Part shown: one piece after another, positions 11,132 to 46,295 of the stretch | Position numbering within the stretch: position 1 is the first letter of the stretch | Layout of the letters: every line of letters begins with the position of its first letter | NCBI GenBank assembly: GCA_043801595.1 | Contig: JAZDLW010000022.1 | Location: 5,526 to 69,525 of the forward strand | Length of the DNA stretch: 64,000 nt | Direction of reading: 5' to 3' | DNA from: Candidatus Aenigmatarchaeota archaeon | GTDB lineage: Archaea; Aenigmatarchaeota; Aenigmatarchaeia; JACPZZ01 | Translations under genes and position numbers: made by a program | The notes under the pieces: model-generated | What the model was told of the DNA's origin: nothing | The model's input: only the letters and a program-made list of their open reading frames with translations | Database searches by the model: none

Positions 11132-11249
11132 GCTTTTTGGGACAACGGAAAACCGAAGTTTTCAACGGAAACCAGTGGTTTCCGTGCACAGAAAACAAAT
11201 GTGTTTTCTGTGCCGTGCATAGGAAACCGTTGTTTCCTATGAAAAGCTT
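11130..11249 (+). repeat. Multi-hairpin intergenic element, long four-hairpin form (120 nt)
   Basis: Closing stem AAGCTTTT/AAAAGCTT, overlapping the lhr stop codon. Hairpins GAAAAC-cgaa-GTTTTC, ACGGAAACC-agt-GGTTTCCGT, CACAGAAAACA-aatg-TGTTTTCTGTG, CATAGGAAAC-cgtt-GTTTCCTATG. Confidence 0.85.
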
Positions 11250-13171: not shown

Positions 13172-13672
13172 ATGAAAACACCCATATGCTCAATATGCTT
13201 GCAATCGGACATACTCTGCCAAAGCTGCAGCAACAACGTAGCGTCGGGCAGGTTAAGCAGGGAAGGCGCGGATATAATCAAAAAACTCTACCAGATGTCA
13301 AAGGAAATAAAATCCCTGGCAAACGTGACTGTTGAAAAGGTGCTTACCTTTGAAAGCCTTGTTGTCATCATTGTGCCGAAGCGTGATGTTCCCGGCATAG
13401 TCGGAAAAGAGGGGCGCATTGCGATAGAGGTTAAAAGACAGTTTGGAAAGCAGATCAAGGTTGTCGGCGACGGCGATTACAAAACAATGATTTCCGGATT
13501 GATGTATCCTGCCAAAATCGAAAGCATAGGAAAACTTTATTCAAACGGCAAAGAAAGCCTGAAAATAAATTTGCGAAGAGGCGAGCTGAGAAACTTGCCG
13601 GCAAGAAAAGAGGATTTGTTGAAGGCTGCCGAAGAGATATCCGGACGTGAATCGGTTATTTCTGTCAATTAA
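13172..13672 (+). CDS. Zinc-ribbon plus KH-domain RNA-binding protein
   Basis: N-terminal CSIC-x7-CQSC. KH GxxG core VPGIVGKEGRIAIEVKRQFGKQIKVV. Confidence 0.6.
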   Translation: MKTPICSICLQSDILCQSCSNNVASGRLSREGADIIKKLYQMSKEIKSLANVTVEKVLTFESLVVIIVPKRDVPGIVGKEGRIAIEVKRQFGKQIKVVGDGDYKTMISGLMYPAKIESIGKLYSNGKESLKINLRRGELRNLPARKEDLLKAAEEISGRESVISVN

Positions 13673-14043
13673 TGCCTGTAATGGTTTTCGAGTATGTCAA
13701 GTTTTTCGCTCAACACCTTGAGCTGCGCTTTCACAGTTTCTATTTCTGCGAGAATAAGATCGATTTTCGGGCTTGACGACGGCTGCTCCGGCTGCGCGTA
13801 CTGCGGTGCGAATTCCTGTGCAGGCCTCTGCGGAAGCGGGAACTGTTTTTCGGCGGGTATCTGAGGTTCTCGTATCATGTCAACCGGCGGGCGCGTCTGG
13901 CGGTCGTCGTAGCGAGACTCATAGGAATTTATGGCCTGTTCTGACGGTAGTTTTATCGGCGCCATGCTTTCCTTTACGCCTTCAAGCGACGGTTTCGCAG
14001 AAAATTTGCGCAGCGCGTTTGCGACCGAATCGATAAAACTCAT
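13669..14043 (-). CDS. Hypothetical P/Q-rich protein with C-terminal coiled coil
   Basis: 124 aa. PQRPAQEFAPQYAQPEQP linker followed by LILAEIETVKAQLKVLSEKLDILE. 4-nt overlap with the upstream gene. Confidence 0.5.
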   Translation of the reverse strand: MSFIDSVANALRKFSAKPSLEGVKESMAPIKLPSEQAINSYESRYDDRQTRPPVDMIREPQIPAEKQFPLPQRPAQEFAPQYAQPEQPSSSPKIDLILAEIETVKAQLKVLSEKLDILENHYRH

Positions 14044-14534
14044 CTTTGCTCCCTCTCCGGCATGTTAAAGGCTTTTCTTAAATCGTTCAGGGCCATTGTC
14101 ATCCTTTCCTCATTGCGGCGCAACATTCCAATCCTGTGGTTTTTGTAAAAATAATTCATGTAAAGAAGCAGCATCAGTTTTACCAAAACATTCGAGTATT
14201 CGAATTCGGTTCTCAGCTGGCAGTAAATAATCATTCTCACAGTTCCCTGTTTTGTTTCGGAATGCTGCTTTCCCTGATAGCGCACGTTAATCATCATGTC
14301 CGTGAACCCGTCCTCTTCACGTTTCATTTCGACTTCGGTGAAAAAGGTGCGAACAACATCGGTTATATCCCAGCGCAGATCTTTTTGCGTCCAGCGCGTA
14401 CCGCTTATTTCAAAATACTGCCTTAACAGCGAAGTCGCCTGGTTCACCATTTTCCACGGCTCCGCACCAGTGTAAACCATTTCAAGTTCCTTGTGAGGTG
14501 CAAATAAGTCGTCCGCGATAATCCATTTTCCCAT
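14040..14534 (-). CDS. Hypothetical protein, paralog of 14547-15059
   Basis: 164 aa. Shares Y-x-GA-x-P, RWD/KWD, LRTE(F/Y) and FYK...L..AF blocks with the neighbouring gene. Confidence 0.55.
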   Translation of the reverse strand: MGKWIIADDLFAPHKELEMVYTGAEPWKMVNQATSLLRQYFEISGTRWTQKDLRWDITDVVRTFFTEVEMKREEDGFTDMMINVRYQGKQHSETKQGTVRMIIYCQLRTEFEYSNVLVKLMLLLYMNYFYKNHRIGMLRRNEERMTMALNDLRKAFNMPEREQR

Positions 14535-14546
14535 TCAAACCATTCC

Positions 14547-15059
14547 TTACGCAACGCGGAATTCTTCGAACGCTTTCTTGATCTCTATTTCCATGTTCCT
14601 TATCAGCGCCCGGCCTTCGTGCAGATATTTCAGGCGCTGGGTTTTGTAAAATATCGTGTGCCACAACATCCTGATCATTTCATAGAAAACGCTTCTTTGC
14701 CACAAAGTGTCCTGCGGGTATTCAGTTCGCAGGGTTCCGAATAGCCTTACACGCGCGTTTCCTTCGCCCTTTGTGCTCTGGCCTATCAATTCGACGGACA
14801 TCCTAAAATACGTGAACCTGTCAAGAGGCTTGCTGATTTCCCAGAAAACATCGAATTTTTGCGTATCCCCAACATTGTCCCATTTGAACGTCCTTTCCTG
14901 AACCTGCCCGCGGTCAACGCCGTAGATTAGGGGTATCAACTCTGACAATCGCGGATAGAACCGCTCAGGCTTCGCTCCTCTGTAGTTAAGAACTAAATAG
15001 TACGGGTCAAACCTGATGAACGGATCCTCGATAACTAGTTTTGTCCTTGCAATTACCAT
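14547..15059 (-). CDS. Hypothetical protein, paralog of 14040-14534
   Basis: 170 aa. First gene of the leftward arm of a divergent gene pair. Confidence 0.55.
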   Translation of the reverse strand: MVIARTKLVIEDPFIRFDPYYLVLNYRGAKPERFYPRLSELIPLIYGVDRGQVQERTFKWDNVGDTQKFDVFWEISKPLDRFTYFRMSVELIGQSTKGEGNARVRLFGTLRTEYPQDTLWQRSVFYEMIRMLWHTIFYKTQRLKYLHEGRALIRNMEIEIKKAFEEFRVA

Positions 15060-15109
15060 GCTTCACACTTCACTTTATTATTTAATCTTCTGCCTTAAAA
15101 TCTAATTAT

Positions 15110-15670
15110 ATGCCCGAAGAGTCCTTAATAATCAAGTCAATATTGGGTTCTGCAGCAATAATCGCGCTGGTTCTTTTCTTCCTTACAGGCGGGTTAAAGG
15201 GCATTGCCGATGCATTCTCGTTGCTAAGCATAGCGATTGGCCTGTTGATAATCGTTGCGCTGTACCTTGCTGAGAGCGGAAGTGAGCATGCCATGATCGG
15301 AACCACGCTGGCGTCCGTACTGATAATCGGCGGCCTGCTCGTACTGCTCAACTCCGGATTGTTGAGTCTTGGCGTTATTTTCCTTGTGCTTCTGGCAGTT
15401 TTGTTTGTTGCTCCAGGGGTTAAGAATGAGGGAGGCAAGGAATGGGCAATACTGATAGCAACGTTTGTTGTGCTGTTATTTCTATCAAGTGCGCAGGGGT
15501 TATTGCCAAGCATACTCAGGGCGTTTAGCCTTGTAATACTCGCAGCGGGCATTTTAACCATAATCTTCTTTATGAGAGTAAGGGAAAAGGAAATACAGGG
15601 CATAACGTCAGCAGGCCTGATGATCGGGACAGTACTGGTATTGCTTGGCTTGTACCTTGTGTTGTTTTAG
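15110..15670 (+). CDS. Polytopic membrane protein (about 6 TM), unknown function
   Basis: 186 aa, almost entirely hydrophobic helices. The mirror ORF on the minus strand was rejected. Confidence 0.6.
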   Translation: MPEESLIIKSILGSAAIIALVLFFLTGGLKGIADAFSLLSIAIGLLIIVALYLAESGSEHAMIGTTLASVLIIGGLLVLLNSGLLSLGVIFLVLLAVLFVAPGVKNEGGKEWAILIATFVVLLFLSSAQGLLPSILRAFSLVILAAGILTIIFFMRVREKEIQGITSAGLMIGTVLVLLGLYLVLF

Positions 15671-15679
15671 GCGTAAACC

Positions 15680-15865
15680 ATGTTCGAATTAACGTCGTTT
15701 GACAGGATATTCCTGAAGGTTTTGGGAACAATATTGATAGTTTTGGGAGCTTTCATGGGCGCTTTCTTCCCGGCAAGGGATTACGAGCCGAAATTCAGAT
15801 TCATGGGAATACTTGTGCCCGGCACAATGCTGATCATAGGCCTTTACCTTTGGGCGGCCAGCTAA
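15680..15865 (+). CDS. Small two-TM membrane protein
   Basis: 61 aa. LKVLGTILIVLGAFMGAFF ... ILVPGTMLIIGLYLWAA. Confidence 0.5.
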   Translation: MFELTSFDRIFLKVLGTILIVLGAFMGAFFPARDYEPKFRFMGILVPGTMLIIGLYLWAAS

Positions 15866-15910
15866 ACGATACTTTTTTACCAGACGGGCATAATAATATT
15901 CTAGATAGCA

Positions 15911-16075
15911 ATGGTTTTCGAGAAATTGGCAGGGTTATTGCTCATTGCAACAGGATTCCTTCTGATATTGTACTTTCCGGATGTAAAGGATCTTGAGGTG
16001 CCGGGCTTTAACTGGGTTGCAATCTTTATCGGCCTTTTCCTGCTGGTTGTCGGGATAAGGCTGTTGTTAGGGTGA
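15911..16075 (+). CDS. Small two-TM membrane protein (below the ORF-track cutoff)
   Basis: Hand-translated 54 aa: MVFEKLAGLLLIATGFLLILYFPDVKDLEVPGFNWVAIFIGLFLLVVGIRLLLG. Same architecture as 15680-15865. Stop lies 6 nt before the next ATG. Confidence 0.4.
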   Translation: MVFEKLAGLLLIATGFLLILYFPDVKDLEVPGFNWVAIFIGLFLLVVGIRLLLG

Positions 16076-16081
16076 AACTCC

Positions 16082-17944
16082 ATGGTAAACTTTATAAAAA
16101 GATCGAGGCCGACAGGCGAATTCCTGTATGCATTGCCGCCAGACCAGAATGGGACACAATTTGACAGCGTTCCGGGAGACGAATTGCTGGGAATACTGAT
16201 AAATCCAACAGGGCCGCTCGGCTTCATATCGCTCCTTTACATAAAGACAATGATACAGATGCCAAAGTTCGGGTACGGCGTTTACAAGTACAAGGACAAT
16301 TTCGAGATCAATCCGACTTACAGGGAATATTACACGGCAACACTTGCGCAGAAGCAGGATCTTGAAACGAAAATAAAAGCGGGCTTGGAATCCGCGGCCC
16401 GTGCAATAAGCGACTATGAACTTCTGGCGCACGACCTCAGGAAATACCAGTCCTATCTGTATCAGTTTAACAAACTCGAGGAAGGCAGGGAAAAGCTAAA
16501 AGAGGCGAAGACGGAAGAGGACAAGAAAAAATACGCGACACAGATTCTTGAGGCCAATACAACATTGAAAGCAGTTTTCATAGATCAGGTCGATGTGCAC
16601 ACGGGCGAAGGCGTTGCGCTCAAGCTCATAGTGAGCAGGTGGCCGAACATAATTGTGGATTTCATGAAACTCGAGGACGATATGAAAACGTCCGAGGATA
16701 TAGTGAAGAGGCTTGTTCCAAAGATCACTACTGCAGAGGCTGTTGTTCTGGCAACAAAGAATAAACTTTTTGACAGGTGGAAGGAAACGTTCCTGGACGC
16801 GGTCAAGCAGCGATACTTAAACCTGCTGAGCCTGATGAATGCCAGAAAAAAAAGCATCGAACAATACAAGAGATGGCTGCGGCCCTATGTTGTCCAACAT
16901 GAATTGCTGAACGAAACGCAGGAGAAAGCCGGCGAAGGCGGTAAAACGCTTACACACAGGTTAAAAATCGGCGCGCATGCGATGTCGACGCACGATCTCG
17001 GGGTTTTTGCCTGGAAGCCCTTTTCACCGGGCGATGTGTTCCGTGCGACTGTTGAGAGAAAAGAAATAGAAATTTCACTGAAATATCTTGGAAAAAAACC
17101 GGAGGAAGAGGCGGAGGATAAAGCCATACTCGCCAAGTACTTGGGCCAGTATAACATAGGTTATGACAAGATCAAAGGCGGAAAATTCACCATAACGTTC
17201 TGGATAAATCCCTACGATAAAGTCGCGAAAGAGGCGCTGTACTCGACAAATCCGAAGAAAGATTATATAAACAGCAAGTCGTTGATCGAGGAGTATCCGT
17301 GGCTAAAACCGAAGGAGATTGAGGGGCAGGTACTAAAAGTTTTGATGGATTCAGAAATGCAACCGAAGACATACCAGAACACGCTTGTGATGCATCCCGA
17401 TTATATTTATTACATACTCTGGGACCTCACGTTCAACAGGCAGATAATAAGCATACCGCAAGGCACAGTAGATGACGGATTCATATTTATAAAAATCGCG
17501 TTCATAAGCCAGAATGTCCTGTTGACGAAATTGCTCGAGAGGTGGGCGTACGAGCAAAGTTTTGACCGCAATGTCGAGGAGATTTTAGGATTGACGGCAA
17601 TAGAGGAAGTCGAGAAAATCGATGTTGGAACAACCGGCAACATGGAAGAATATGCCAAAAACAGATACAAGTCGGTTTACGCCGAGAAAAAAGGGAAAGA
17701 GGACAAGAAGCCGGTCTCGCTGATGGAATCGATCGTGCACAAAATAAACGAGATGAACAACCGGTTGAGCGTCATTAACATGATGACAGGACCATTCGGT
17801 ATAACGTTCCAATTGTTCAAGAAAGGACCTTATGAAACAAACCTCAAAGACAGGATAACAAGGCAATATTCAAAGGCGTTTGCGGAAACATATCGTGCAG
17901 AGTTTATCGACTGGTTCGAGGACGCGGCAAGAATAGGCGACTGA
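16082..17944 (+). CDS. Large hypothetical protein with central coiled-coil region (620 aa)
   Basis: Long ORF, GGGTGA Shine-Dalgarno-like sequence upstream. Lys/Glu-rich helical segment around residues 90-280. No recognisable catalytic motif. Confidence 0.65.
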   Translation: MVNFIKRSRPTGEFLYALPPDQNGTQFDSVPGDELLGILINPTGPLGFISLLYIKTMIQMPKFGYGVYKYKDNFEINPTYREYYTATLAQKQDLETKIKAGLESAARAISDYELLAHDLRKYQSYLYQFNKLEEGREKLKEAKTEEDKKKYATQILEANTTLKAVFIDQVDVHTGEGVALKLIVSRWPNIIVDFMKLEDDMKTSEDIVKRLVPKITTAEAVVLATKNKLFDRWKETFLDAVKQRYLNLLSLMNARKKSIEQYKRWLRPYVVQHELLNETQEKAGEGGKTLTHRLKIGAHAMSTHDLGVFAWKPFSPGDVFRATVERKEIEISLKYLGKKPEEEAEDKAILAKYLGQYNIGYDKIKGGKFTITFWINPYDKVAKEALYSTNPKKDYINSKSLIEEYPWLKPKEIEGQVLKVLMDSEMQPKTYQNTLVMHPDYIYYILWDLTFNRQIISIPQGTVDDGFIFIKIAFISQNVLLTKLLERWAYEQSFDRNVEEILGLTAIEEVEKIDVGTTGNMEEYAKNRYKSVYAEKKGKEDKKPVSLMESIVHKINEMNNRLSVINMMTGPFGITFQLFKKGPYETNLKDRITRQYSKAFAETYRAEFIDWFEDAARIGD

Positions 17945-17946
17945 TC

Positions 17947-18016
17947 CTTTTCTTTTAACACAGAAAACAACTGTTTTCTGTGCGCGGAAATCAAAGATTT
18001 CCGCTGAAAAGAAAAG
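17947..18016 (-). repeat. Multi-hairpin intergenic element, two-hairpin form, inverted orientation (70 nt)
   Basis: Closing stem CTTTTCTTTT/AAAAGAAAAG. On the minus strand reads GCGGAAATC-ttt-GATTTCCGC-g-CACAGAAAAC-agt-TGTTTTCTGTG. Starts 3 nt after the upstream stop. Confidence 0.8.
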
Positions 18017-18047
18017 CGTCAACGGAAAAGAAAATTTGGGCGGTAAA

Positions 18048-20051
18048 ATGGTTTACACAATAGGCGTTTCCAGCGGCTGGTGGGGCATTGCCAAGACGCC
18101 GGACCTTCTTGGACTGGGATTAAAGGCGATGTCCGCCGCAACTTACGGCGTCACGTTTGTACAACTTGATATCGAATCGCCGTCAGAATTCCGCGAGCCG
18201 TTGCTTCAGCAGCAACTTACGATCGCGCGCGAAGATCTCGGGATAAACTATGGCATACACGGCGAAATAGACATGCGCCTGGAAAATTCTATAAAGGATT
18301 TCTGGGACATTTTTAACGAGAGATTGATCGATCAGATAGAAGGCGCGGTTGAGACGAAAACGGCGTACATGCATTTTCACGCGTCGTCCGAACCTCCGCC
18401 AACATTCGGATCGGCAATGATAGGGACAAGGTTTTACAGGCTGGTCGGGCCTGACGGGGCCACGCTTTACAATGCGTTGAATTATTTTGAGCAGGACAAA
18501 AGCGGAAAATTCTTTTCCAAAAAATATCCGCACCTAACCCATGTGCAAATCGATATTATCAGGAATATCATTCTAGAAAACTACCTTTCCGGAGGCGGAC
18601 CCGAAGCTTCGGACCCGAAACACCGCCAGTTTCTAGACGGATTGAATGAATACGAAACATCGGCAGCTATTATCGCGCTAGGCGATGTGCGGGAAAATAT
18701 ATCAAAGAAAATGGCGGGCATAATGAAGCCCGAACTGGAAAATATGGCGAGGGCGCGAGGAGTGCCGGTTACTGTGCCTACGCGAGATGGGGGAGCCAGA
18801 CAGATTACCATAGCGGAGTACATTGACTGGCTTAACAGTGAAACAAGCGCGGGCAGGAATGACATCAACGGTATTTTAAACGCCTTAACCAGTTATCTGA
18901 ATTTAAGAGGCGCGTCACTCGAAGATTATGTTAAGACGGCGAGAGAAAAAGCACGACGGTCGCTGTACAAATATGTAGAGGATTTTCTTAAAAGCGAGAT
19001 AAAGGAAAAATACGTTCCATTCTTCGGCTTTGATGAGCGACTTGCGTATGAACTCGTTGGCAGGCTATTGCAGGGCTCTCCGCAATGGAAAAAAATATGT
19101 TACACGCCTTATGTGCGGGAGCAATTGAGAATACAATTCATACAGGAAAATACCGGGAAGCAGTTCAATGACGACGCGGACATTACCATTGAAAATCTTT
19201 TAAGGAGCAATGACCGCCGAGTTCAAGCGTTAGTTTCCACGGTCGTAGCGATGGAGTACATCAACGGACATTTCGAATCTCCGATGCAATACAGGGATCC
19301 CAATACAGGGAAGTTCACACTGTTAAAAAGCAAAAACGGCGACCGCGTCAAGGATTATATCAAGGACAATAACATTATCGTAACGTTCGAGACGCCGCAG
19401 GTAGAACCTAAACAGGAAGGACTGTTGCGTATAGTGCGCTCGGAACACATTTACCAGCTTGTGAAAAAAATACGGGCGTACAGGGGCGATGAAGATTATC
19501 TTTCAAAGAACGTTTTTATTTCGCTTGACTTCGAGCACATACTCACGCACAACCTTAGCATAGACCTTGAGATCGATGATTTACCGCTGGACGGCGGAGC
19601 TTATTGCAAAGTCATCCATGTTGGACAACCTAAACCAATACATCCTGCGCACGCGCCGCTGATTGTCGGGTCCGAAGCGCAGGAACTTATCTATAGATAT
19701 CTTTTCAAGCTTCGCAAAAAGGGATTCAAGGACGGCTGGATAATTTTTGAGCGCGGCGGCGGGCAGAGCCCGCTCGAATGGATGCGGTCGAGCGTTCATG
19801 CCATGAGGTTAATAGTCGAATATCTTGAAAAAGAAATGGACCCTGACAAACTTCCGCCGGAATTTTACGGCATATCACCGGATTCCGAGTTTTCGGAACA
19901 GAGACAGGCCGCAATAATACAGGAACATTTCTTTGCGCCGTTAAACGGCACACTGGCAGTTCCTGATGAAGAACATACTTTCCTGGGACGAGTTGCGACG
20001 GAAAGGCCGGGCATTGCGCCTGAAAAATGGAAGAAGGAAGAATTGAGGTAG
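18048..20051 (+). CDS. Xylose-isomerase/endonuclease IV-like TIM-barrel protein with a large insertion (about 667 aa)
   Basis: Ordered candidate metal-ligand blocks YGIHGE, MHFHAS, VTFETPQ, LDFEH (D-x-x-H), IHVGQ, HPAH, IFERGG. Start taken at ATG 18048 (track: TTG 18036). Confidence 0.6.
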   Translation: MVYTIGVSSGWWGIAKTPDLLGLGLKAMSAATYGVTFVQLDIESPSEFREPLLQQQLTIAREDLGINYGIHGEIDMRLENSIKDFWDIFNERLIDQIEGAVETKTAYMHFHASSEPPPTFGSAMIGTRFYRLVGPDGATLYNALNYFEQDKSGKFFSKKYPHLTHVQIDIIRNIILENYLSGGGPEASDPKHRQFLDGLNEYETSAAIIALGDVRENISKKMAGIMKPELENMARARGVPVTVPTRDGGARQITIAEYIDWLNSETSAGRNDINGILNALTSYLNLRGASLEDYVKTAREKARRSLYKYVEDFLKSEIKEKYVPFFGFDERLAYELVGRLLQGSPQWKKICYTPYVREQLRIQFIQENTGKQFNDDADITIENLLRSNDRRVQALVSTVVAMEYINGHFESPMQYRDPNTGKFTLLKSKNGDRVKDYIKDNNIIVTFETPQVEPKQEGLLRIVRSEHIYQLVKKIRAYRGDEDYLSKNVFISLDFEHILTHNLSIDLEIDDLPLDGGAYCKVIHVGQPKPIHPAHAPLIVGSEAQELIYRYLFKLRKKGFKDGWIIFERGGGQSPLEWMRSSVHAMRLIVEYLEKEMDPDKLPPEFYGISPDSEFSEQRQAAIIQEHFFAPLNGTLAVPDEEHTFLGRVATERPGIAPEKWKKEELR

Positions 20052-20106: not shown

Positions 20107-20178
20107 TAAACTTCTTAAAACAACGGAAACCGTGGGTTTCCGTGCACAGGAAACGTGACGTTTCCTGTGAGAAGTTTA
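20107..20178 (+). repeat. Multi-hairpin intergenic element, two-hairpin form (72 nt, the cleanest copy)
   Basis: Closing stem TAAACTTCT/AGAAGTTTA (9 bp). ACGGAAACC-gtg-GGTTTCCGT (9 bp). CACAGGAAACG-tga-CGTTTCCTGTG (11 bp). All stems are perfect. Confidence 0.9.
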
Positions 20179-20223: not shown

Positions 20224-21018
20224 ATGGAAACAAATAAATCCGGAGAAAAAAAAGATTATGAGCCGAAGGCTCGCGTTTCGAAGGCAATGAAGTTCTCCAA
20301 GATCATACGCGAACAGTTTCCCGACTTTGTAAAAGGCGTTCTTTTGTTCGGGTCGGCTGCCAAAGGCGTGAAAAAAGCGGGTGATGTCGATGTTCTCATA
20401 ATACTCGACGATACCGATCCCAAGATATTTCCCGAACAAATTGACAAGGTTGACGAAAACATACGACTGATCGCGGACAGTATTGGGGACCTTCATCCGC
20501 AGGTTCACACGATCACGGATTTCTGGGACTGGATACGGCACGGAGACCCGATACTATTCAACTTTTTACGGTACGGATATCCGATATTCGATGCAGGCTT
20601 CCTAAAACCGACACAGCGCCTGTTGGAAGCGGGAAGGATAACGCCGTCGCAGGAGGCCATACGGCTCTACTCAAAAATCGCGCCTAAAAATCTTGAGAAG
20701 GCGGAGAGCTACATACGCGCAGCAGTGATAAGATATTACGATGCGATGACAGCCGCTGCGCAGGCGGTTTCGATGCTCGCTTTTAAACACCAACCCGAGC
20801 CACGCGAGATACCTTCGGTGCTGGACAGGCTTGTAAAGGAAGGAAAGCTCGACAAGAAATTCGTGGACTATTATATTTCCGTTTTCAAACTGTGGAAGCA
20901 GATAGATCACAAGGAGATAACGGACATACCCGGCAATGTTATCGAGAAGCAGAGAAAAGAGACGAATGAGTTTGTAGATATGATGAAGACGTTCCTTAAG
21001 GGCTATGCGGAAGAGTGA
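20224..21018 (+). CDS. Pol-beta-superfamily nucleotidyltransferase fused to a helical HEPN-like domain (short form)
   Basis: NTase motif LLFGSAAKGVKKAGDVDVLIILDD. Conserved middle block NFLRYGYPIFDAGFLKPTQRLLEAGRITPSQEA. C-terminal helical module with KQIDHKEITDI. Confidence 0.75.
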   Translation: METNKSGEKKDYEPKARVSKAMKFSKIIREQFPDFVKGVLLFGSAAKGVKKAGDVDVLIILDDTDPKIFPEQIDKVDENIRLIADSIGDLHPQVHTITDFWDWIRHGDPILFNFLRYGYPIFDAGFLKPTQRLLEAGRITPSQEAIRLYSKIAPKNLEKAESYIRAAVIRYYDAMTAAAQAVSMLAFKHQPEPREIPSVLDRLVKEGKLDKKFVDYYISVFKLWKQIDHKEITDIPGNVIEKQRKETNEFVDMMKTFLKGYAEE

Positions 21019-22144
21019 CATGAAAATTAAAAGCGTGCCAAAACGAAAATCGATCAAAGACATAGCGCGAAAGCGAAGAGCGGACATGGTTAAGGCCCTT
21101 ACGCAGAAGATACTCAACAAATTCGGAAAATACGTGAAGTGCGTTGTCCTTGTCGGATCCGTAGCGCGCGACGAATTCAAGAGTAATTCCGATATAGACA
21201 TGTTTATCGTTATCGACGACACGAAAGTCAATTTCACGCCCGAGGAAAAAAGAAGGATAGACGTCGAGATCGACCTGGCGGCCCAAGAGATCAACAAAGA
21301 TATCATTGTGCAACCTGCTTATACGCTGACTGAATTCTGGGACATGGTACGAACATCGCACCCGCTGATATACAATTTTATCAGGGACGGTATTCCAGTT
21401 TACGACACGGGTTTTTTCATGCCCATAAAACGCCTGCTTGAAATGGGTCGCATACCTGCGACCAAAGAAGCCGCGGACGCGCTTTTGGACAAGGCGCCGA
21501 AGCGATTGCGCAGGATATCCGAGGTAAAATTGTACATGGTCGCGGAAGACTGCTACTATGCAATGGTTGATATAACCCAGGCCGTTTTAATGTCGCTGGG
21601 TTTTGCGCCCCCTTCACCGGGAAAAGCGGCCGATGAATTCCGAAGACACCTCGTAGACACGAAAATAGTCGAAGGAAAATACGCGGATTGGCTGGATGCG
21701 ATAAACGAGTTCCGCAAGGATGTGGAGCATAAAAAAATAAACGAGATAACTGGATCCGAACTAGACGAGTGGATGAAAAAAGCCAACGAATTCGTTGAAA
21801 AGATGCTGCAGGTTTCCGGAGGATTGGAGTTAAAGAAAAAGGAAAGGATAGTCGAGAAAAGCTATGACGTGATGACAAAGGCGATTGTTGCCGCGTTAAA
21901 ATCGGTAAATAAGCTGCCAAACGAGCAGGCTGAAATTCCGAGCGCTTTCAAGAAATACCTGGTGGACGAGGGGCTTGTCGAAAAGCATTATATCGATATA
22001 TTCAACCGCCTTGAAGAGATGAGAAACAAAGTGCACGACGGAAGGATAACGGAGATACCGGACAAGGACATATATTCGCACAGGGAATATGTCAGGAAGT
22101 TTATCCATCACATCGGCAAGATAGTAAAGGAAGACGAACAATAA
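21005..22144 (+). CDS. Nucleotidyltransferase fused to two HEPN-like modules (long form)
   Basis: VLVGSVARDEFKSNSDIDMFIVIDD. Duplicated C-terminal module with FRKDVEHKKINEI (R-x4-H) and MRNKVHDGRITEI. Alternative start at ATG 21020, just after the upstream stop. Confidence 0.75.
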   Translation: MRKSDMKIKSVPKRKSIKDIARKRRADMVKALTQKILNKFGKYVKCVVLVGSVARDEFKSNSDIDMFIVIDDTKVNFTPEEKRRIDVEIDLAAQEINKDIIVQPAYTLTEFWDMVRTSHPLIYNFIRDGIPVYDTGFFMPIKRLLEMGRIPATKEAADALLDKAPKRLRRISEVKLYMVAEDCYYAMVDITQAVLMSLGFAPPSPGKAADEFRRHLVDTKIVEGKYADWLDAINEFRKDVEHKKINEITGSELDEWMKKANEFVEKMLQVSGGLELKKKERIVEKSYDVMTKAIVAALKSVNKLPNEQAEIPSAFKKYLVDEGLVEKHYIDIFNRLEEMRNKVHDGRITEIPDKDIYSHREYVRKFIHHIGKIVKEDEQ

Positions 22145-32388: not shown

Positions 32389-32454
32389 CAAACTTTAAGA
32401 CAGCGGTTTGCTGTGCAAACCGCGCATAGGAAACTTGGTTTCCTATGAAGTTTG
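32389..32454 (+). repeat. Multi-hairpin intergenic element, two-hairpin unit
   Basis: Closing stem CAAACTT/AAGTTTG. Hairpins GCGGTTTGC-tgt-GCAAACCGC and CATAGGAAAC-ttg-GTTTCCTATG. Confidence 0.8.
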
Positions 32455-32470
32455 AACAAACGAGAAAAGT

Positions 32471-32537
32471 CTTTGGACAACGAAAATCATAGATTTTCGT
32501 GCACAGGAAATCAACAGATTTTCTGTGTTCCCAAAAG
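32471..32537 (+). repeat. Multi-hairpin intergenic element, two-hairpin unit
   Basis: GACA-ACGAAAATC-ata-GATTTTCGT-g-CACAGGAAATC-aaca-GATTTTCTGTG. Imperfect closing stem CTTTGG/CCAAAAG. Abuts the 3' end of tRNA-Gln. Confidence 0.8.
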
Positions 32538-37573: not shown

Positions 37574-37618
37574 CACAGGAAACGATAGTTTCCTGTGCAC
37601 GGTTTGCTTTTGCAAACC
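37574..37618 (-). repeat. Multi-hairpin element, two-hairpin unit in inverted orientation
   Basis: CACAGGAAAC-gata-GTTTCCTGTG then GGTTTGC-tttt-GCAAACC. This is the reverse order of unit 32389-32454. Confidence 0.75.
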
Positions 37619-38213: not shown

Positions 38214-38654
38214 GACAATAGCCATTGCTATTGAACCGCCGAACGCGAAACCGAAGAACAAGCCGGACGATAACCAAACGAAACCGTTAACGGCAAGGTA
38301 GACAAGAACGAAACCGAAGATTACTGATGCCAAATAACTCGGAAGCTCGTAGTCTATCTTTTTTGCAAGCATTTTCATCCTCTGCGAATTCTTCGTCTTC
38401 GAGGCGTAAAATCGCCTGTAGAAAACCCAGTGTTTTCCGAATTCATGGTGCCAGTGCGTGCCATAGAACATGCCCACTGCGATGCCTAACAGGAAACCGG
38501 CGTAAATTCTGTTTCCTGTAGCCAGGTAAACGTTAGTTGATTCGAGAAATAGGAAGGCTGCAAGCAAGGCGATGAAAACATGCGCTTTTGCTGTCATTGC
38601 CCAGATAAGATGATCCCTGTGCAGAAGCCTGTACGCCTGCTTTAAAAAATTCAT
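38196..38654 (-). CDS. Membrane protein (about 4 TM), unknown function
   Basis: Trimmed to Met57 (38654) because the longer ORF overlaps dph5. Hydrophobic helices and an HWHHEFGKHW segment. Confidence 0.5.
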   Translation of the reverse strand: MNFLKQAYRLLHRDHLIWAMTAKAHVFIALLAAFLFLESTNVYLATGNRIYAGFLLGIAVGMFYGTHWHHEFGKHWVFYRRFYASKTKNSQRMKMLAKKIDYELPSYLASVIFGFVLVYLAVNGFVWLSSGLFFGFAFGGSIAMAIVLNDLA

Positions 38655-46225: not shown

Positions 46226-46295
46226 ACTTCTTAGGACAACGGAAAGCCGAAGCTTTCCGTGCAAAGGAAACGCATCGTTTCCTTTGAGAAGTTTA
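46223..46295 (+). repeat. Multi-hairpin intergenic element, two-hairpin form (73 nt)
   Basis: Closing stem TAAACTTCT/AGAAGTTTA, whose TAA is the stop codon of the upstream gene. Hairpins ACGGAAAGC-cgaa-GCTTTCCGT and CAAAGGAAACG-cat-CGTTTCCTTTG. Confidence 0.85.

Follow-up and report, generated by a model that had tools for sequence, protein, structure and literature searches.

A phylum-wide gene module of Candidatus Aenigmatarchaeota that may encode a membrane-tethered protein complex

The DNA analyzed here, hereafter the window, is a stretch of 64,000 nucleotides (nt) on contig JAZDLW010000022.1 of assembly GCA_043801595.1, from a Candidatus Aenigmatarchaeota archaeon (DPANN). It contains a divergent cluster of eight genes, denoted g1 to g8, which an earlier note on this DNA had singled out as a possible membrane-associated machine made of unassigned proteins. 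We found that the cluster is a vertically inherited, single-locus module, to date known only from Candidatus Aenigmatarchaeota. The phyletic and syntenic evidence makes it very likely that its core genes are functionally linked as a conserved module, and their products probably form a cytoplasmic protein complex tethered to the membrane. The overall reading that we propose, in which this complex processes phosphoesters on a hydrophobic substrate, is tentative, and we regard it as possible rather than probable.

The gene map of the cluster, with its eight open reading frames (ORFs), agreed exactly with the mechanical ORF list, and the 50-nt spacer between its two arms was borne out by the sequence. 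The genes, the spacer, and the two nucleotidyltransferase genes that follow the cluster, NT1 and NT2, are located as follows.

13669-14043, minus strand: g1, 124 amino acids (aa), rich in proline and glutamine (P/Q), tether-like
14040-14534, minus strand: g2, 164 aa, paralogue of g3
14547-15059, minus strand: g3, 170 aa
15060-15109, unstranded: divergent spacer, 50 nt, AT-rich, with two AT-rich boxes, TTTATTATTTAA and CTTAAAATCTAAT
15110-15670, plus strand: g4, 186 aa, polytopic, 6-7 transmembrane (TM) segments
15680-15865, plus strand: g5, 61 aa, 2-TM hairpin
15911-16075, plus strand: g6, 54 aa, 2-TM hairpin, directly upstream of g7
16082-17944, plus strand: g7, 620 aa
18048-20051, plus strand: g8, 667 aa
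20224-21018, plus strand: NT1, 264 aa, Pol-beta-type nucleotidyltransferase
21005-22144, plus strand: NT2, 379 aa, nucleotidyltransferase with a HEPN-like helical domain

The 4-nt coupling overlap reported earlier is that of g1 and g2 (14040-14043), and the paralogous pair of ~165-aa proteins corresponds to g2 and g3 (BLASTP E 7e-10, 23% identity, 161 aa).

A profile scan with g7 was conducted on one genome per GTDB species and detected relatives in 182 species-level genomes; at least 209 g7 homologues were found. The best 80 g7 genomes were all from Aenigmatarchaeota or unnamed archaea, bar one 4.3-kb contig labelled Micrarchaeota. All named homologues of g8, g7 and g3 came from metagenome-assembled genomes (MAGs) of Candidatus Aenigmarchaeota/Aenigmatarchaeota, and the divergent named members of the g8 family were from Aenigmatarchaeota or a "DPANN group archaeon." Outside the phylum, no relatives of g7, of g1 or of the 2-TM module were detected. 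The Micrarchaeota-labelled contig (JAADFI010000030.1, from a MAG of Candidatus Micrarchaeota) is the sole g7/g8 record under another phylum label; mis-binning or mislabelling is likely, and it could also mark an occurrence outside Aenigmatarchaeota.

We then compared the gene neighborhoods of g7 at the best 80 of the 182 g7-positive species-level loci, with denominators that vary per gene.

g8, directly downstream of g7, same strand: 67/69 loci
g3, within 5 kb upstream of g7: 70/74 loci, 66 of them divergent
g2, within 5 kb upstream of g7: 63/69 loci
NT1, within 5 kb downstream of g7: 47/57 loci
NT2, within 5 kb downstream of g7: 45/57 loci
NT2, within 8 kb downstream of g7: 41/47 loci
YchF, within 10 kb upstream of g7: 27/40 loci

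Annotation-free clustering of ORFs of at least 90 aa at 87 loci yielded only these families as a near-universal set: g7 (87 loci), g2/g3 (78, two copies each), g8 (77) and NT1/NT2 (66), the term near-universal being inferred from the 182 positive genomes together with the synteny fractions. YchF (42 of 87) and TFB (38) came next, and the further neighbors were scattered housekeeping genes, namely aIF5A, S3Ae, GatD, an AsnC-type regulator and an ABC ATPase. The small proteins have diverged beyond the reach of BLAST, and hidden Markov models (HMMs) were therefore built for the C-terminal helix of g1 and for the 2-TM module and applied to the same 87 loci. Orthologues of g1 were detected at 68 of them, mostly less than ~100 bp downstream of g2 and on the same strand. 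The 2-TM module was present at 82, in one to three copies that are separate or fused, and in 73/85 cases it immediately precedes g7 on the same strand.

Thus, the phylum-wide core is g3-g2-g1 on one arm, diverging from one or more 2-TM genes followed by g7 and g8 on the other, usually with NT1 and NT2 (20224-22144) behind them. The earlier note had made its proposal depend on co-conservation of the genes in other genomes; the unit is kept across the phylum, and the proposal stands in that respect. The eight genes as drawn are not the natural unit, given that BLAST relatives of g4 and g5 were found in the seven closest genomes only and that the block extends to 22144.

The arrangement is kept far beyond close relatives. 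The seven loci around individual homologues showed the same gene order at 30-37% protein identity with different flanks, and within the close clade identities range from 54 to 74% for g8 and from 51 to 80% for g7. Both genes are under strong purifying selection. Start and stop codons overlap or abut between g2 and g1, between the 2-TM gene and g7, and between g7 and g8 in loci L002, L004 and L005. Each sampled genome has a single locus, with one exception: MAG JZ-2_201705_bins_269 carries two complete copies on separate scaffolds (L058 and L080; JAWCME010000001.1 and JAWCME010000015.1), which reflect a true duplication or else the binning of two strains into one MAG.

A conserved gene order might also arise if unrelated housekeeping genes had been frozen in place by slow rearrangement in a reduced genome, and YchF and TFB do recur near the cluster. 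Nevertheless, YchF was found at 27/40 loci, against 91-97% for g2, g3 and g8, and the flanks vary widely while the order and orientation of the core persist at ~30% protein identity. The overlapping or abutting start and stop codons indicate operon coupling, and the core families all share the same narrow taxonomic range. We therefore consider frozen gene order a very unlikely explanation, and return to the module as a functional unit.

None of g1 to g8 matched a family at a meaningful E-value in Pfam, NCBIfam, PADLOC or PHROGs, and sequence searches of the PDB with single sequences and with the profiles of g7, g8 and g3 found no relative. The description of these genes as encoding entirely unassigned proteins was thus upheld by every library tried. 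Neither an ATPase nor a recognizable nucleic-acid-binding domain was detected in g1-g8, nor any homology to the known cytoskeletal, ESCRT-III/PspA, SepF and CdvA families (Pfam and NCBIfam for g1 and g7, Foldseek for g7 and g3). Within the searchable literature on hypothetical-protein modules of DPANN and Aenigmarchaeota, the cluster is not described. We rate it as categorically new as a system, no known system having its composition, on the strength of these negative searches; a known cellular process might lie behind very divergent proteins.

The weak matches of NT1 and NT2 to MntA- and HalB-type proteins, together with the hairpin repeats that flank g8, would fit a defence island or mobile element, or else a cassette of viral origin. 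Against this, PADLOC and PHROGs were empty for g1-g8, a tblastn search of g7 against 50,697 phage records returned no match, and g7 has no counterpart in BFVD. The cluster is near-universal, occupies a single locus in all but one genome and is syntenic with housekeeping genes, and the GC content is even along the whole window. The phyletic pattern effectively refutes this origin, to which we give almost no weight. What follows concerns the module as an inherited cellular system.

Hydropathy analyses supported the earlier count of one 6-TM and two tiny two-TM proteins, with six to seven TM segments in g4 and a pair in each of g5 and g6; g1, g2, g3 and g8 have none. g5 and g6 are paralogues (BLASTP E 5e-5, 32% identity). 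The comparison of g4 with g5 by BLASTP was non-significant; the HMM of the 2-TM module matches the longer (~295-330 aa) orthologues of g4. The 2-TM gene often abuts the start of g7 or overlaps it by 3-7 nt.

g1 combines an N-terminal amphipathic, basic helix (MSFIDSVANALRKF), a variable linker rich in P, Q and E, and a conserved C-terminal helix of ~35 aa. The N-termini of its orthologues are of the MG[IL]FS..K.KKK or MVFGFLKKKK type, and the linker is very variable in length. An amphipathic helix, a linker and a binding element make up the layout of division-protein tethers such as SepF and FtsA. By architectural analogy g1 is laid out like a peripheral membrane tether of the SepF/FtsA/ZipA type, with its amphipathic and basic helix, low-complexity linker and short C-terminal element. 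It differs from these proteins in having no sequence or fold homology to them, and its C-terminal element consists of one helix instead of a SepF domain. The N-terminus of g1 may also resemble the membrane-binding N-termini of ESCRT-III and SepF.

A membrane-attached complex is the most economical reading, because the conserved 2-TM gene abuts or overlaps the start of g7 and because g1 has an amphipathic N-terminus. The membrane association put forward earlier is plausible on the same two grounds, and the products may act together as the proposed "machine."

The AlphaFold2 (AF2) model of g7, computed from 61 sequences, has a predicted local distance difference test score (pLDDT) of 80.5 and a predicted template modelling score (pTM) of 0.68. 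It shows an antiparallel coiled-coil stalk of ~60 residues (81-141/217-275) that carries a small helical head (145-216). An alpha/beta domain (~300-476) and C-terminal helices come after them. The single hydrophobic stretch of the protein (467-485) is placed by the model inside the globular domain. The head holds the most conserved motif, FIDQVDVHTGEG..RWP.II.DFM, and conservation peaks at residues 161-200. Conserved residues of the head and adjoining stalk are H117, D118, R120, K121, Y122, F166, D168, V170, D171, H173, T174, R186, W187, P188, D193, E219, K226 and N227. The best-conserved blocks (117-122, 166-174, 186-194 and 218-227) correspond to positions ~16430-16760 of the window; they contain an H-D doublet and a D..D.H motif along with other Asp, Arg and Lys residues. 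Judged from the register of the helices, these residues are expected to lie close together in space, and they could form a binding or metal site in the helical bundle. The conserved blocks gave no match to the HD domain or to any other family. With its H-D, D..D.H and D cluster, g7 might even be a helical metalloenzyme of a new kind.

Foldseek searches of the g7 model against the PDB and BFVD returned nothing at E ≤ 1e-3, the matches being generic coiled coils or noise (E ≥ 0.012). The dynein stalk was among the top matches, at a non-significant level (E ≥ 0.17). By architectural analogy, the ~60-residue antiparallel coiled coil with its conserved helical head resembles the dynein stalk and its microtubule-binding domain (MTBD), as well as the arm of seryl-tRNA synthetase, but g7 has no motor or synthetase domain, and its alpha/beta base has no recognized relatives. 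A PHA01746-like Pfam lead, present in 9/61 g7 homologues and at first suggestive of archaeal viruses, was rejected as a coiled-coil artefact: it covers the first long helix only and scores 20.3 bits against a cut-off of 24.4. Literature searches on the PHA01746-like name found nothing.

For g8, the listed ORF begins at TTG 18036. All orthologues begin MVYTIGVSSGWWG, and we therefore take ATG 18048 as the true start. A ligand pattern of the TIM-barrel type had been noted in this protein, and the searches supported a place in that superfamily and revealed invariant residues of the metal-ligand type. The Pfam family PF01261 (AP_endonuc_2) matched 5/18 close homologues of g8 (best E 2.6e-4), and a distant member, P0227, exceeded the gathering score (39.5 bits, gathering 31.1; E 6.8e-10). 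The g8 of the window did not match PF01261 even at E ≤ 10, and g8 had no match to the NCBIfam nfo models. By transitive homology only, g8 thus appears to be a very divergent member of the xylose-isomerase-like TIM-barrel superfamily.

Residues H71, H111, E448, D494, H524 and H535 are invariant in 77 g8 sequences, E568 is present in 76/77 (the other has a gap), and H408 and H497 are conserved at 97% and 95%. The zinc ligands of Escherichia coli endonuclease IV (Endo IV, Nfo), which we take to be H69, H109, E145, D179, H182, H216, D229, H231 and E261, are reportedly those given by Hosfield et al. in 1999. The g8 series H71, H111, E448, D494, H497, H524, H535 and E568 reproduces the order of 8/9 of these ligands. 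Within it, E448, D494, H524 and E568 would supply the E-D-H-E core of carboxylate and histidine metal ligands that characterizes PF01261. This Endo IV-like set suggests that g8 is a putative metalloenzyme engaged in phosphoester chemistry. It differs from Endo IV in its size (667 aa against ~285 aa), in a helical insertion of ~320 aa (~120-440) that would sit inside the barrel, between the N-terminal part and the remainder, and in an invariant C-terminal tail. The insertion gave weak matches to coiled-coil Pfam families (APG6_N and Seryl_tRNA_N type) in g8 relatives. When 1.84 billion representative proteins were scanned in full with the g8 profile by HMMER, only 209 clusters reached E ≤ 1e-3, which indicates that the g8 family is discrete and does not merge into the TIM-barrel superfamily. 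Also unlike Endo IV, g8 is always paired with the orphan g7.

The long coiled coils of g7, and the helical or coiled-coil insertions of g8 relatives, raise the possibility that the module is a structural or cytoskeletal scaffold at the membrane, serving division, the envelope or a host-contact site. In such a scaffold the coiled coils of g7 and of the g8 insertion would be anchored by g1 and g6, and any enzymatic features would be secondary. The tether-like layout of g1, by analogy with SepF and FtsA, is consistent with this, and a core role in cell biology would suit genes that are universal, vertically inherited, confined to one locus and surrounded by housekeeping genes. However, the invariance of the putative metal ligands of g8 across 77 species argues for catalysis, the core has no NTPase, and no homology links it to the cytoskeletal, ESCRT, SepF, CdvA or PspA families. 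A scaffold is, in our view, rather unlikely, and we favor a complex that includes an enzyme.

The second soluble component consists of g2 and g3. g3 bears the signature LRTEYPQDTLWQRS.FYE..R.FWH..FY...R. The motif LRTEYPQDTLWQRS.FYE..R..H..FY...R is nearly invariant in g3 and degenerate in g2, which also has fewer conserved positions. A degenerate paralogue next to a conserved one is typical of heterodimers, and the retention of the motif in g3 with its degeneration in g2 suggests that the two form a heterodimer of one functional and one structural subunit. The AF2 model of g3 (41 sequences; pLDDT 89, pTM 0.81) has the helix-grip topology beta-beta-alpha-beta4-long alpha, with strands at 7-13, 21-29, 53-63, 66-78, 83-96 and 99-115 and helices at 31-46 and 124-169. 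Its antiparallel sheet around a long C-terminal helix resembles that of SRPBCC/START/Bet v 1 proteins. The best Foldseek matches in the PDB were all of this class (SRPBCC, CoxG, PYL, PR-10 and START; E 5e-4 to 1e-2), including 3p9v (Maqu_3174), CoxG 2ns9 and the PYL receptors, and the top match, 3p9v, had an E-value of 5.4e-4 and a probability of 1.0. Helix-grip proteins typically bind hydrophobic ligands.

g3 departs from the class in its C-terminal helix of ~46 residues, which is longer than usual, and g2 and g3 differ from it as a conserved paralogous pair. We know of no counterpart of the invariant motif LRTEYPQDTLWQRS. By analogy only, the small helical partner gene g1 next to g2/g3 recalls Ups1-Mdm35 (4ytx). 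At best, g2 and g3 are remote SRPBCC-like helix-grip proteins.

The genes NT1 and NT2 overlap by 14 nt, and their products are paralogues (34% identity, E 2e-40). Both exceed the Pfam cut-off of 21 bits for NTP_transf_2 (PF01909), with 34.8 bits for NT1 and 35.1 for NT2; NT2 also matches HEPN (PF05168) at 22.0 bits, exactly at the cut-off of 22. At 83-84% identity to their orthologues at locus L001, they are more conserved than g7 and g8. The closest solved relative of NT2 is kanamycin nucleotidyltransferase (KNTase) 6p01 (E 4.5e-5), and weak matches to the MntA- and HalB-type defence nucleotidyltransferases were found. A Pol-beta domain combined with a C-terminal helical, HEPN-like domain is shared with KNTase-like and MNT-HEPN proteins. 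In contrast to these, NT1 and NT2 are an overlapping pair fixed beside a housekeeping-like cluster and not part of a toxin-antitoxin or resistance setting, and in NCBIfam they fall far short of all equivalog cut-offs. Enzymes of the KNTase type typically nucleotidylate hydroxyls of small molecules or proteins.

In 10 loci, an Nfo-like TIM barrel of 263-266 aa is encoded directly after NT2 (L004 16870-17661, L005 15975-16775, and eight more). Alignment with E. coli Nfo showed that the L004 and L005 proteins keep 8/9 of the zinc ligands of Endo IV. In some genomes, g8 thus has a classical Endo IV-like gene in its neighborhood and is not simply a replacement for it.

These observations bear on a role in the repair or processing of nucleic acids, with g8 as an Endo IV-type AP (apurinic/apyrimidinic) endonuclease or 3'-phosphoesterase, nucleotides added by NT1 and NT2, and g7 serving as a coiled-coil scaffold as Rad50 does for Mre11. 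Such a role would account for invariant g8 residues in the order of 8/9 Endo IV zinc ligands and for Pol-beta-superfamily nucleotidyltransferases after the cluster in ~80-87% of loci. The Nfo-like barrels after NT2 are also consistent with it, as are the RNA- or DNA-related neighbors in the window (Lhr, YchF, a NusA-like KH protein, an HD protein and Trm1). The conserved 2-TM protein at the start of g7 and the amphipathic N-terminus of g1, however, point to the membrane, and g1-g8 have neither an ATPase nor a recognizable nucleic-acid-binding domain. NT1 and NT2 resemble nucleotidyltransferases of small molecules or proteins (KNTase, MntA) rather than polymerases, the nfo models miss g8, and some genomes carry an Nfo-like gene as well. 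We judge this role to be improbable, about as much so as a structural scaffold.

The membrane-tethered, phosphoester-processing complex that we prefer might work as follows. g6 and g1 would anchor the soluble components on the inside of the membrane. g7 would be a stalk-like scaffold whose polar head (H117, D118, R120, D168, D171, H173, D193, E219 and K226) could bind a partner, a metal or a ligand. The g2/g3 heterodimer would hold a hydrophobic moiety, and the Endo IV-like multinuclear metal site of g8 would cut or rearrange a phosphoester or sugar-phosphate on the substrate so held. NT1 and NT2 might activate or modify the same substrate. The complex would thereby process the polar head of a lipid or of a lipid-linked compound, in the remodelling of membrane lipids or of envelope precursors. 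Lipid-linked phosphoester chemistry is suggested by the ligand set of g8 in combination with helix-grip g2/g3 and KNTase-like NT1/NT2; we hold this part of the proposal to be doubtful.

Several observations weigh against this proposal. For g8, the counterpart of D229 (H532) is present in 30/77 sequences only. Alignments of its profile by hhalign to E. coli Nfo and to a small Nfo-like alignment were non-significant (E 0.15 and 0.25); these non-significant alignments pair E448, D494 and H524 with Nfo E145, D179 and H216, and the pairing of E568 with E261, like the Endo IV-like ligand pattern as a whole, comes from the order of the residues. For g3, the TM-scores of the Foldseek matches are low (0.38-0.41 for 3p9v and 0.2-0.35 for the rest), and neither g2 nor g3 has a match in Pfam, the families of the SRPBCC clan included, in NCBIfam or among PDB sequences. 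The role given to g7 is pure conjecture, its fold having no recognizable relatives. The recurrent neighbors (YchF, TFB, aIF5A and S3Ae) are informational and tell nothing about lipids. Lipid-synthesis genes were considered as consistent neighbors and rejected, as they occur at L005 and L007 only and do not recur.

The DPANN archaea make up a large, mostly uncultured share of archaeal diversity and are dominated by hypothetical proteins, and their membrane assembly and host interactions are still little understood. In Aenigmarchaeota, the mevalonate pathway is reported to be incomplete and membrane lipids have been proposed to be host-derived (PMC8407114), which we mention as context only. It is conceivable, if improbable, that the module is a phylum-signature membrane machine that takes up or remodels host-derived lipids or lipid-linked envelope precursors, and that it underlies the symbiotic lifestyle. 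Such a machine would combine at least three families that lack recognizable relatives (g7, g1 and the 2-TM module) with a radically remodelled TIM-barrel metalloenzyme and a helix-grip heterodimer. The gene set is co-inherited and offers a tractable putative metalloenzyme in g8, a well-modelled putative ligand-binding pair in g2/g3, and in g7 a predicted fold with no relatives in the PDB or BFVD. Handling of lipids or envelope precursors, if true, would bear on membrane maintenance in reduced symbionts; should the function differ, this would nonetheless be a lineage-defining cellular module.

We also analyzed the noncoding parts of the region. The divergent spacer is presumed to be a compact bidirectional archaeal promoter that would give near-leaderless transcripts. 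Both AT-rich boxes are kept in the close relatives L001, L009 and L011-L014, and the spacer between g3 and the rightward arm has a median length of ~60 nt in the phylum. The structured elements are the following.

17947-18016, plus strand: structured element in the g7-g8 spacer, an outer stem enclosing hairpins CACAGAAAACA/TGTTTTCTGTG and GCGGAAATC/GATTTCCGC
20123-20169, plus strand: downstream of g8, two more hairpins of this family, ACGGAAACC/GGTTTCCGT and CACAGGAAACGT/ACGTTTCCTGTG
11166-11241, 17959-18004, 20123-20169, 32425-32447, 32502-32527, 37574-37597, 38488-38520 and 46262-46286: palindrome sites in the window

The hairpin announced between the last two genes is present in the g7-g8 spacer, where a three-way structure with two perfect hairpins has a minimum free energy of -35.3 kcal/mol (z = -5.9). 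Both hairpin types also occur at 11166-11241, after the Lhr gene. They belong to perfect, intergenic, dispersed and often tandem palindromes of the types CACAGRAAAC..GTTTYCTGTG and CGGAAAYC..GRTTTCCG. The first turns up at several other intergenic sites as well and has 35 matches in the window (≤ 1 mismatch), against 7.9 ± 2.6 expected, and the second has 3 against 0 expected. An Rfam scan of the region found no credible RNA family for the hairpins, and the orthologous g7-g8 spacer of L001 lacks them. As the palindromes recur throughout the window and are absent from the L001 spacer, the idea of a regulatory element specific to the cluster was rejected. They look REP-like (repetitive extragenic palindromic) or terminator-like, because the three composite sites examined are all at gene 3' ends.

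The mechanical list also contains long antisense ORFs, such as 15106-15603 (minus strand, 165 aa, opposite g4) and 16067-16432 (minus strand), which we treated as noncoding shadows. A 134-aa ORF antisense to g7 clusters across 35 loci, a recurrence that follows from the conservation of g7 itself.

As to further genes around the cluster, the archaeal lipid-synthesis-type genes of L005 (5077-7030) and L007 (4594-6572), 2-4 kb upstream, are Fe-ADH/G1P dehydrogenase-like and PcrB or BtpA genes. In the window, neighbors comprise the Lhr helicase, the YchF GTPase, a NusA-like KH protein, an HD protein and Trm1. The gene at 13172-13672 (plus strand) encodes a 166-aa zinc-ribbon and NusA-like KH protein (PRK06418, E 2.9e-33, below the cut-off). 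It converges on g1, with stop regions overlapping by 4 nt, and its position is taken by an unrelated Cys-rich protein of 164 aa in 16 other loci.

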